DNA of 352 bases from Escherichia coli. Its GTDB lineage: Bacteria > Pseudomonadota > Gammaproteobacteria > Enterobacterales > Enterobacteriaceae. The translations under genes were made by a program, and so were the position numbers. The stretch lies in assembly GCF_003334255.1 (NCBI RefSeq), contig NZ_QOWU01000256.1; one strand, written 5' to 3'. Below are positions 13-352 of this stretch, in pieces (position 1 is the first letter of the stretch; each line of letters begins with the position of its first letter). A model generated the notes under the pieces. The model searched no databases. It saw only the letters and a list, made by a program, of their open reading frames with translations, and had not been told where the DNA came from.

Positions 13-153
13 CTACTGCTTACACTGTAAGAACGCCGCAAACTCCGCTCCCCACAAATTCAGCCGGAACTCACACAACGAGCCGTGTAACATCCAGATG
101 GTGAAGATTACCGTCATACAAATTGTGACGGTGATGAGCGATTTTTGCGACAT
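13..153 (-). CDS. hok: Hok/Gef-family type I toxin, small inner-membrane protein, 46 aa (HokA-like)
   Basis: Minus-strand ATG at 153..151 and TAG stop at 15..13. An in-frame TAG lies 10 codons upstream (183..181) with no other start between, so the start is unambiguous. AGGAG Shine-Dalgarno (plus 163..167) sits 9 nt upstream of the ATG. Translation: MSQKSLITVTICMTVIFTIWMLHGSLCEFRLNLWGAEFAAFLQCKQ. Short polar N-terminus (MSQK), an ~18-residue hydrophobic segment, then a tail with the SLCE and AAFL.CK motifs characteristic of Hok/Gef proteins. Family assignment is from recalled HokA/HokE sequences, not a database search. Symbol is family-level only; the paralog is not assigned. Confidence 0.85.
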   Translation of the reverse strand: MSQKSLITVTICMTVIFTIWMLHGSLCEFRLNLWGAEFAAFLQCKQ

Positions 154-256
154 AACGCTTGTCTCCTGAGTGGAGAGGCGCTAACCTACTACTTGTGAAG
201 GTTGTACGGTCAGGGCCTCGGGTTAACATTAAAGTTGACTCGGGGCCTTTCCACAT
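71..256 (-). CDS. mok: mok-like overlapping reading frame (61 aa), probable translational-coupling ORF, not an independent protein
   Basis: The ORF from the supplied track (MWKGPESTLMLTRGPDRTTFTSSRLAPLHSGDKRYVAKIAHHRHNL...). It starts 103 nt upstream of the hok ATG, runs across the hok Shine-Dalgarno and start, and ends at TGA 73..71 inside hok in a different frame. This is the arrangement known for mok in plasmid R1 hok/sok. Its His/Arg/Thr-rich sequence has no recognisable fold. Start is uncertain: a GAAGG lies only 4 nt before the ATG at 256, and an alternative in-frame ATG exists at 229..227. Confidence 0.45.
   Translation of the reverse strand: MWKGPESTLMLTRGPDRTTFTSSRLAPLHSGDKRYVAKIAHHRHNLYDGNLHHLDVTRLVV
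159..187 (+). promoter_or_regulatory. Candidate sigma70 promoter for a Sok-like antisense RNA
   Basis: Plus strand: -35-like TTGTCT (159..164), 17-nt spacer (165..181), -10-like TAACCT (182..187) with T at position 1, A at 2 and T at 6. Predicted start around 191..195. The -35 overlaps the hok Shine-Dalgarno region on the opposite strand, as I recall for the Sok promoter in R1. Hexamers are moderate matches only. Confidence 0.4.
163..167 (-). promoter_or_regulatory. Shine-Dalgarno (ribosome-binding site) of hok
   Basis: Minus-strand AGGAG (plus-strand ctcct at 163..167) with a 9-nt spacer to the hok ATG at 153. Confidence 0.6.
194..252 (+). ncRNA. sok: Candidate Sok-like cis-encoded antisense RNA (type I antitoxin), about 57-60 nt
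   Basis: Lies between the candidate promoter (159..187) and a stem-loop plus TTT (214..250). Predicted architecture is a roughly 20-nt unstructured 5' tail (194..213) followed by a single 3' hairpin. It is fully complementary to the mok/hok mRNA from 4 nt downstream of the mok ATG to about 60 nt further on. Size and layout resemble Sok of plasmid R1 (about 64 nt). Ends are approximate. Confidence 0.4.
214..252 (+). terminator. Stem-loop with short U-run; putative intrinsic terminator and structural domain of the antisense RNA
   Basis: Plus-strand 214..227 (GGCCTCGGGTTAAC) pairs with 234..247 (GTTGACTCGGGGCC): 14 bp, 11 Watson-Crick plus 3 G-U wobbles (218/243, 221/240, 224/237), 6-nt loop ATTAAA (228..233), followed by TTTCC (248..252). 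On the minus-strand transcript the three wobbles become A-C mismatches. The U-run is only 3 nt, so termination efficiency is uncertain. Confidence 0.35.
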
Positions 257-306: not shown

Positions 307-335
307 AATCTACGATTTTTGCCCTGCACGGGCAA
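307..335 (-). promoter_or_regulatory. Candidate promoter for the mok/hok mRNA
   Basis: Minus strand: -35-like TTGCCC (revcomp of plus 330..335), 17-nt spacer, -10-like TAGATT (revcomp of plus 307..312). Predicted start near plus 300, giving an mRNA beginning GGGUGCCUUUCGGC... about 44 nt upstream of the mok ATG. Weak hexamers; the true promoter could lie beyond the right edge. Confidence 0.3.
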
Positions 336-336
336 C

Positions 337-352
337 AAAAAACCCGCCATCA
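337..352 (-). terminator. Possible 3' arm and T-tract of an intrinsic terminator for an upstream minus-strand gene, truncated by the window edge
   Basis: Minus strand reads ...TGATGGCGGG TTTTTTGTT: a GC-rich segment (plus 343..348) followed by a T6 tract (plus 337..342). The matching 5' arm would lie beyond position 352 and is not visible. Confidence 0.2.

Follow-up and report, generated by a model that had tools for sequence, protein, structure and literature searches.

Positions 159-187 on the plus strand of the E. coli stretch analysed here (352 nt, hereafter the window) are very probably the σ70 promoter of a Sok-type antisense antitoxin RNA in a prophage-borne hok/sok locus. Sequence, conservation, geometry, fold and homology are shown below, and from them we infer that the promoter is active here, where its RNA starts and how the toxin is regulated. 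The overlap between the Sok promoter and the toxin ribosome-binding site is an ordinary feature of the family, occurring here in an uncharacterised prophage paralogue. The original prediction had placed a candidate −35 (TTGTCT) at 159..164, with a −10 (TAACCT) downstream of it, and these coordinates are all correct when checked against the sequence. The elements of the locus, with the evidence for each, are as follows:

13..153, minus strand: hok-family toxin ORF, 46 aa, MSQKSLITV… (ORF list, Pfam, PHROG, RefSeq)
71..256, minus strand: mok-like leader ORF, 61 codons, in the +1 frame relative to hok (ORF list)
159..164, plus strand: predicted Sok promoter −35, TTGTCT, a 4/6 match to TTGACA (sequence, conservation, geometry)
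163..167, minus strand: hok Shine-Dalgarno (SD) sequence AGGAG, 9 nt upstream of the ATG (sequence; phage P27 record)
165..181, plus strand: promoter spacer, 17 nt (sequence, alignment)
172..187, minus strand: predicted hok-mRNA structural elements inside the Sok promoter (MFE leader fold; Rfam RF01794 consensus)
182..187, plus strand: predicted Sok promoter −10, TAACCT (TANNNT), a 3/6 match (sequence, conservation, sokW identity)
195..252, plus strand: predicted Sok-like antisense RNA, ~58 nt, starting at G195 (annotated sok 5' ends, fold, conservation)
307..335, minus strand: predicted hok mRNA promoter, TTGCCC (335-330), 17 nt, TAGATT (312-307) (PWM)

Judged from its sequence, the locus is an uncharacterised, prophage-borne copy of a hok/sok-type toxin–antitoxin system and belongs to a known family. 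The 46-aa ORF, whose ATG lies at 153-151 on the minus strand, has the marks of a small Hok/Gef-family membrane toxin, matching both Pfam PF01848 HOK_GEF (E=4.7e-8, model positions 6-42 of 42) and PHROG 251 (E=2.8e-24); its RefSeq name is 'Hok/Gef family protein' (WP_000078907.1). With the NCBIfam HokA equivalog it scores 38 bits, so far under the cut-off of 89 that it represents a distinct subfamily. The window shares 99.4% identity with prophage DNA in the chromosome of E. coli, strain DETEC-S792 being an example, and with phage PhiR5_2. For many Stx-converting phages, in which the locus adjoins lom and tail-fibre genes, the figure is 91-96%, as it is for the prophage copies of the EHEC strains Sakai and EDL933. 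A match to the window was present in 1551 of 5426 complete E. coli genomes, with at least 80% query coverage of the locus in 1540 (~28%), and more than 40 phage contigs encode one and the same Hok protein (100% identity). Almost unchanged, this enterobacterial prophage locus also turned up in assemblies labelled Xanthomonas pisi, a Planococcaceae MAG and a Collinsella MAG, most likely through contamination or mis-binning; our scan of genome contigs yielded seven loci, some of them from contaminated MAGs. For comparison we assembled 87 related loci from E. coli and Shigella prophages, Salmonella, Citrobacter and E. albertii, which reduced to 50 distinct sequences, the window included.

Stx-converting phages carry two distinct hok/sok loci ~13 kb apart (at 15544-15897 and 28698-28741 in AP004402.1; at 46265-46618 and 59419-59462 in KP682372.1). 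One of the two is hokW/sokW, which has been characterised, and the other is the lom-adjacent 46-aa paralogue, which phage pipelines mislabel 'MokW-like'. We rejected an identification of the window with hokW/sokW, as the phage records would suggest, because the primers of Takada et al. place hokW in the other paralogue.

The pair TTGTCT-17-TAACCT supplies both hexamers of a σ70 promoter within the usual 16-18 nt spacing; the predicted −10 lacks a TG extension, and the spacer contains the remainder of the hok SD complement (165-167) and a conserved GAGGCGC (175-181). A strict consensus scan of the window, with thresholds of at least 4/6 per hexamer and at least five T after the stem, returned no promoters and no terminator. 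Since a weak −10 and a short U-run fall foul of such thresholds, we instead used a PWM together with shuffled sequences. By this measure the predicted Sok promoter scored 9.4 bits, equal to sokW, and ranked second among 3240 sites in the window, only the hok promoter scoring higher (11.6 bits). An equally good site occurred anywhere in the window in 357 of 1000 dinucleotide shuffles (36%), and at the place of the Sok promoter (−10 starting at 175-195, plus strand) in only 14 of 1000 (1.4%). As a bare motif, the hexamers are thus weak and not beyond chance; in context, with place, rank and conservation taken together, the site is more than chance.

A further conserved block lies just upstream. 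The sequence GATTTTTGCGACAT (140-153), which on the minus strand is the hok start codon and codons 2-5, is nearly invariant, synonymous sites included: 11 of its 14 positions do not vary and the other three each differ in one of the 50 sequences. Relative to the predicted Sok promoter it covers about −42 to −55, the usual place of an UP element, and its invariance could reflect such an element or, equally, a constraint from translation initiation or RNA structure.

When the reference hok/sok loci were read on the Sok strand from the complement of the hok ATG, the flagged hexamers of the window fell at the place of the Sok promoter in every member read:

R1-type: −35 TTGCGC, spacer 17, −10 TATCCT
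sokB: −35 TTGCCG, spacer 17, −10 TAAGAT
sokC: −35 TTGACC, spacer 17, −10 CACTCT
sokE: −35 TTGCCT, spacer 17, −10 TACCAT
sokX: −35 TTGCCT, spacer 17, −10 TAACAT
sokW: −35 TTGCCT, spacer 17, −10 TAACCT
window: −35 TTGTCT, spacer 17, −10 TAACCT

The annotated RNA 5' ends of sokB, sokC, sokE, sokX and sokW all lie 7-8 nt past the homologous −10. Across the paralogue set TATCCT, TAAGAT, TACCAT, TAACAT and TAACCT, only −10 positions 1, 2 and 6 are fixed, which is the signature of σ70 recognition and not of base pairing.

Experimental work on two of these relatives bears on the function of the site. Sok-promoter point mutations in R1, whose Sok is described as unstable and as having a strong promoter, abolish Sok on northern blots. 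In phage 933W, where the sokW −10 (TAACCT) is identical to that of the window, a sokW 'pro-less' allele with a changed −10 unmasked HokW toxicity, and growth recovered in part when sokW was provided in trans (Takada et al. 2021, PMC8621323). From primer YO-421 and the 933W sequence, we deduced that this change was TAACCTA to GAGCCGG, converting the −10 to GAGCCG. The phages in question (933W, Sp5; PMC8621323) carry both hokW/sokW and the present locus, at the ~13 kb distance given above; HokW differs in being a 51-aa RelF/Gef-like paralogue, and sokW in having an R1-type promoter register and the mokW ATG inside the Sok tail.

Within the subfamily, no σ70-like site on the Sok strand outscored the homologous one in 48 of the 50 distinct relatives; its spacer was 17 nt in 42 of these and 18 nt in six. 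TAACCT was identical in 299 of 300 alignment cells and the TTG of the −35 in 149 of 150, and even the most divergent copies (Salmonella, Citrobacter, E. albertii) keep TAACCT unchanged. Variation was found at −35 positions 4-6, in the first half of the spacer and in the three bases 3' of the −10; the −35 variants of the subfamily are TTGTCT, TTGCCT, TTGACT (with an 18-nt spacer) and TTGCTC. A decayed copy on E. albertii plasmid pEA5_1, in which Hok is cut to 33 aa, has its −35 degraded to TTTTCT and its Sok hairpin broken and retains TAACCT. This copy is a natural control in favour of the promoter, in that a truncated Hok is found alongside a lost TTG and a lost hairpin.

The RNA that this promoter would produce has the expected anatomy. 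The 5' ends of sokB, sokE and sokX are a G located 8 nt past the −10 and preceded by TT, and the annotated sok 5' ends 7-8 nt past the −10 point to G195 in the window, in agreement with the start at 191..195 that had been proposed. ACTTG (191-195) is conserved and is followed by ~17 hypervariable bases, a conserved 16-bp hairpin (212-249) and UUU. The predicted elements of the RNA are a 5' tail at 195-207, single-stranded in the MFE fold, the hairpin at 212-249 and a short U-run (UUU) on its 3' side at 248-250; the fold of 195-253 has a free energy of −28.6 kcal/mol and a z-score of −5.07. This predicted tail and hairpin correspond to the anatomy of Sok, with its single-stranded recognition tail and terminator hairpin, and the hypervariability of the tail fits a specificity region, as expected. 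Covariation in the hairpin is sparse within the subfamily, with double changes in two of ten pairs, too few to be informative. A candidate cis-encoded antisense gene inside the toxin leader and upstream of the toxin ORF, with a predicted promoter and terminator hairpin of its own, can be recognised in the sequence of the window. For this locus and the 46-aa subfamily, a literature search turned up neither transcripts nor mapped 5' ends nor reporter assays, and it gave no usable 5'-end data for the sok genes of O157 prophages; Sok annotations of the T1TAdb type are computational.

On the opposite strand, the predicted hok promoter would place the 5' end of hok mRNA near G300, the position at which the Rfam leader model begins. 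RF01794 matches the leader over its full length (model positions 1-157, window 300-142, minus strand) with 35.8 bits and E=1.1e-6, below the gathering score of 59 and below the 84-118 bits of the reference loci. The sub-threshold score marks a divergent subfamily, not a non-member, and it means that standard annotation would miss the locus. RF01794 bears the name 'sok antitoxin'. In all of the reference loci its match lies on the hok-sense strand and runs from hok mRNA +1 as far as the hok AUG; this strand is opposite to the annotated sokB, sokC and sokE genes. We therefore rejected the idea that a minus-strand match contradicts a plus-strand Sok, the model being one of the hok-sense leader.

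A tac/fbi-like pairing of the two ends of hok mRNA is visible as sequence complementarity between the 5' GGGUGCCUUUCGGCUG (window 300-285) and CAGCCGAUAUGGCACCC. The latter is found in the genome copy of 99.4% identity, ~40 nt outside the window. In the 3' untranslated region of hok mRNA there (L001 3950-3990, minus strand; ~40 nt left of position 1), a GACGGGGAC-GAAA-GTCCCCGTC hairpin is followed by CAGCCGATATGGCACCCG, which is complementary to the mRNA 5' end (window 300-285) and thus resembles fbi, outside the window. At its other end, the right edge of the window (337-352, minus strand; L001 4337-4366) cuts a terminator-like hairpin, CCCGC…GCGGG plus TTTTTT, downstream of lom. This lom-side terminator ends immediately before the hok −35, so that the hok promoter directly follows the terminator of the upstream gene.

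The MFE fold of the leader assigns the Sok promoter DNA a second role in hok mRNA. In this predicted fold, UCC (174-172) pairs with the SD (164-166), GCCUC (179-175) pairs with GAGGC (219-215) in a dcb-like helix, and the complement of the −10, GGUUAG (186-181), pairs with CUGACC (213-208); the helices of the fold recur in the RF01794 consensus. Inside the promoter spacer there is also an inverted repeat, CTCC (163-166)-TGAGT-GGAG (172-175), kept as CTCC-N5-8-GGAG in most relatives, which in hok mRNA would form a small hairpin sequestering the hok SD. On these models the stronger multiple coding is located at the −10 and in the spacer, where hok mRNA helices are predicted, and not at the −35/SD contact. 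For R1, Le Rhun et al. placed a Sok-promoter mutation in dcb and cautioned that the toxin mRNA is changed when the antitoxin promoter is mutated, so the principle of promoter/mRNA multiple coding is already published.

The leader ORF begins just 3' of the Sok terminator (ATG 256-254), and its frame runs through the hok SD and start codon. An ORF starting with ATG, GTG or TTG and reaching the hok start was present in only 17 of 40 distinct leaders of the 46-aa subfamily. The commonest relatives, whose Hok is identical, have no leader ORF that reaches hok, owing to frame-breaking indels and a stop in the hypervariable region of the Sok tail.

The original prediction likened the arrangement to that of hok/sok of plasmid R1, and this held for its type, with a Sok promoter inside the hok leader, and not for its register, which is that of sokE and sokX. 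As in R1 (parB; read from an R1-type IncFII plasmid copy), the Sok promoter of the window lies inside the hok leader and is convergent with the hok promoter, its −35 touches the hok SD, its −10 region doubles as an hok-mRNA element (dcb in R1), and Sok consists of a short 5' tail and a terminator hairpin that starts with GCCTCG. In R1, sokB, sokC and sokW, however, the SD complement flanks the −35 on its upstream side (CTCC directly followed by TTGNNN, sharing TT), whereas in the window, sokE and sokX it extends across the 3' half of the −35 into the spacer; the Sok promoter of the window is 8 bp nearer the hok ATG than that of R1. The mok start codon of R1 is inside the Sok 5' tail, whereas the leader ATG of the window (256-254) is just past the Sok 3' end. 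Hok has 46 aa in the window and 52 aa in R1, which scores 87 bits with the Rfam model. The closer likeness is to sokE and sokX of E. coli K-12, where TTGCCT-CC puts the SD complement (CCTCC) in the register of the window and the RNA begins with a G, 8 nt past the −10, with TT before it; the hokE leader likewise has an ATG just 3' of the Sok hairpin. Nevertheless, HokE (50 aa) and hokX (a remnant) are other Hok paralogues, and these loci are chromosomal, whereas the window locus is prophage-borne, and only distantly alignable with it outside the motifs.

The sharing of DNA between promoter and ribosome-binding site proved real but small. The −35 and the SD overlap on opposite strands by two nucleotides (163-164), as read directly from the sequence, and the phage P27 record has an annotated RBS at the equivalent of window 162-167. 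Counted from the first base of the CAT complementary to the hok ATG, CTCC begins at offset 13, and the SD-to-ATG spacing is the same as in R1, hokC and hokW. Of the 50 relatives, 49 keep the SD complement CTCC, one clade having its register moved by 1 nt; in hokA the −35 and the SD complement are 4 nt apart. Contact between −35 and hok SD is a trait of the family whose register is not fixed. The further claim that one element would be hard to mutate without the other was overstated, as natural variants change the shared positions. These are −35 positions 5-6, the least informative of the hexamer, and C163 suits both elements, so the two signals are compatible and not mutually constraining; with TTG (159-161) outside the SD, and with the core of the SD (165-166) inside the spacer, the elements can be mutated separately. 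Our literature search gave nothing usable by way of an explicit published statement of the −35/SD overlap.

Could the conservation that we attribute to the promoter have another cause? The block 172-187 may be kept only for leader codons and for hok mRNA structure, namely the anti-SD, the dcb-like helix and a target stem, with the likeness to hexamers incidental and the antisense RNA arising elsewhere or being absent. The GCCUC/GAGGC and GGUUAG/CUGACC pairings, present in both the MFE fold and the Rfam consensus, favour such an account, as do the statement that the −10 region of R1 Sok is in dcb and the persistence of TAACCT in the decayed pEA5_1 copy; the invariance of TAACCT and GAGGCGC could indeed owe much to opposite-strand helices and to the leader ORF. 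The −10, however, never varies while its pairing partner does (208, 211), and TTG 159-161 is conserved with no pairing role in the fold. The plus strand offers no other σ70-like site upstream of the hairpin, and the geometry matches five annotated sok genes. We therefore regard mRNA structure as a very unlikely sole cause; it does not exclude the promoter in any case, dual coding being the norm of the family. An antisense start from a different site, TTGTAC (202-207), 16 nt, TAACAT (224-229), is barely credible, and we rejected this site on conservation and position. Although it is the third-best PWM site in the window (8.0 bits), its −35 is in the part that varies most (202-207), its −10 reaches over the loop of the hairpin and the upper part of the 5' arm, and a start inside the 3' arm would give an RNA with neither hairpin nor tail; a counterpart is absent from the reference loci.

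The Sok promoter might also be genuine in origin and the copy a regulatory relic with no present function, comparable to several hok loci of K-12. Many chromosomal hok loci are degenerate (Fozo 2010), hokA and hokC of K-12 are flanked or cut by IS elements, and the leader ORF is absent from most close relatives. In the window, by contrast, the hok promoter, leader ORF, SD, toxin ORF, Sok promoter and hairpin are all intact, the genome copy has an fbi-like box, and the invariance of Hok in more than 40 phage contigs and the presence of the locus in 1540 of 5426 complete E. coli genomes are not what a relic would lead one to expect, so we give this explanation little credence. Somewhat less improbable, though still unlikely, is that a functional Sok controls Hok independently of mok, for example through duplex-triggered decay or by locking a leader fold that sequesters the SD, and not by the mok coupling of R1. 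This idea arises because most close relatives have no leader ORF reaching hok and because the predicted Sok covers neither the leader start nor the hok SD. On this reading, the Sok promoter of the 46-aa subfamily has slid 8 bp toward the toxin start, bringing an SD/anti-SD hairpin inside its spacer.

We favour a Sok promoter acting much as in R1. RNA polymerase would start at about G195 and stop past the 212-249 hairpin, producing an RNA of ~58 nt whose entire length would be complementary to the hok mRNA leader (mok codons 2-20). If R1 is a guide, the hok promoter would be weak and constitutive and would give rise to a stable, folded mRNA, and the unstable Sok would pair through its single-stranded 5' tail with the processed form of this mRNA. 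Once paired, the leader ORF (256..71) would go untranslated, and with it the coupled hok ORF, and the duplex would be marked for cleavage. Loss of the prophage, or a shut-off of Sok transcription, would then release Hok. Since Sok is encoded within the hok leader, the DNA of its promoter would have a second reading, in hok mRNA, on the opposite strand: the −35 and the beginning of the spacer would give the hok SD, the spacer an anti-SD and a dcb-like box, and the −10 one side of a leader helix. Because the leader start codon lies past the predicted Sok 3' end and not in the tail, control may depart from that of R1 in its details.

The significance of these findings beyond annotation is slight. 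They supply coordinates for an unannotated, predicted Sok-like RNA and its promoter, in a paralogue carried by ~28% of complete E. coli genomes and by many Stx-converting phages. Across the family, the position of the promoter relative to the hok SD varies, which tempers the idea of a rigid interlock between promoter and RBS. Changes in the −10, unlike those in the −35/SD region, will alter a predicted helix of hok mRNA.
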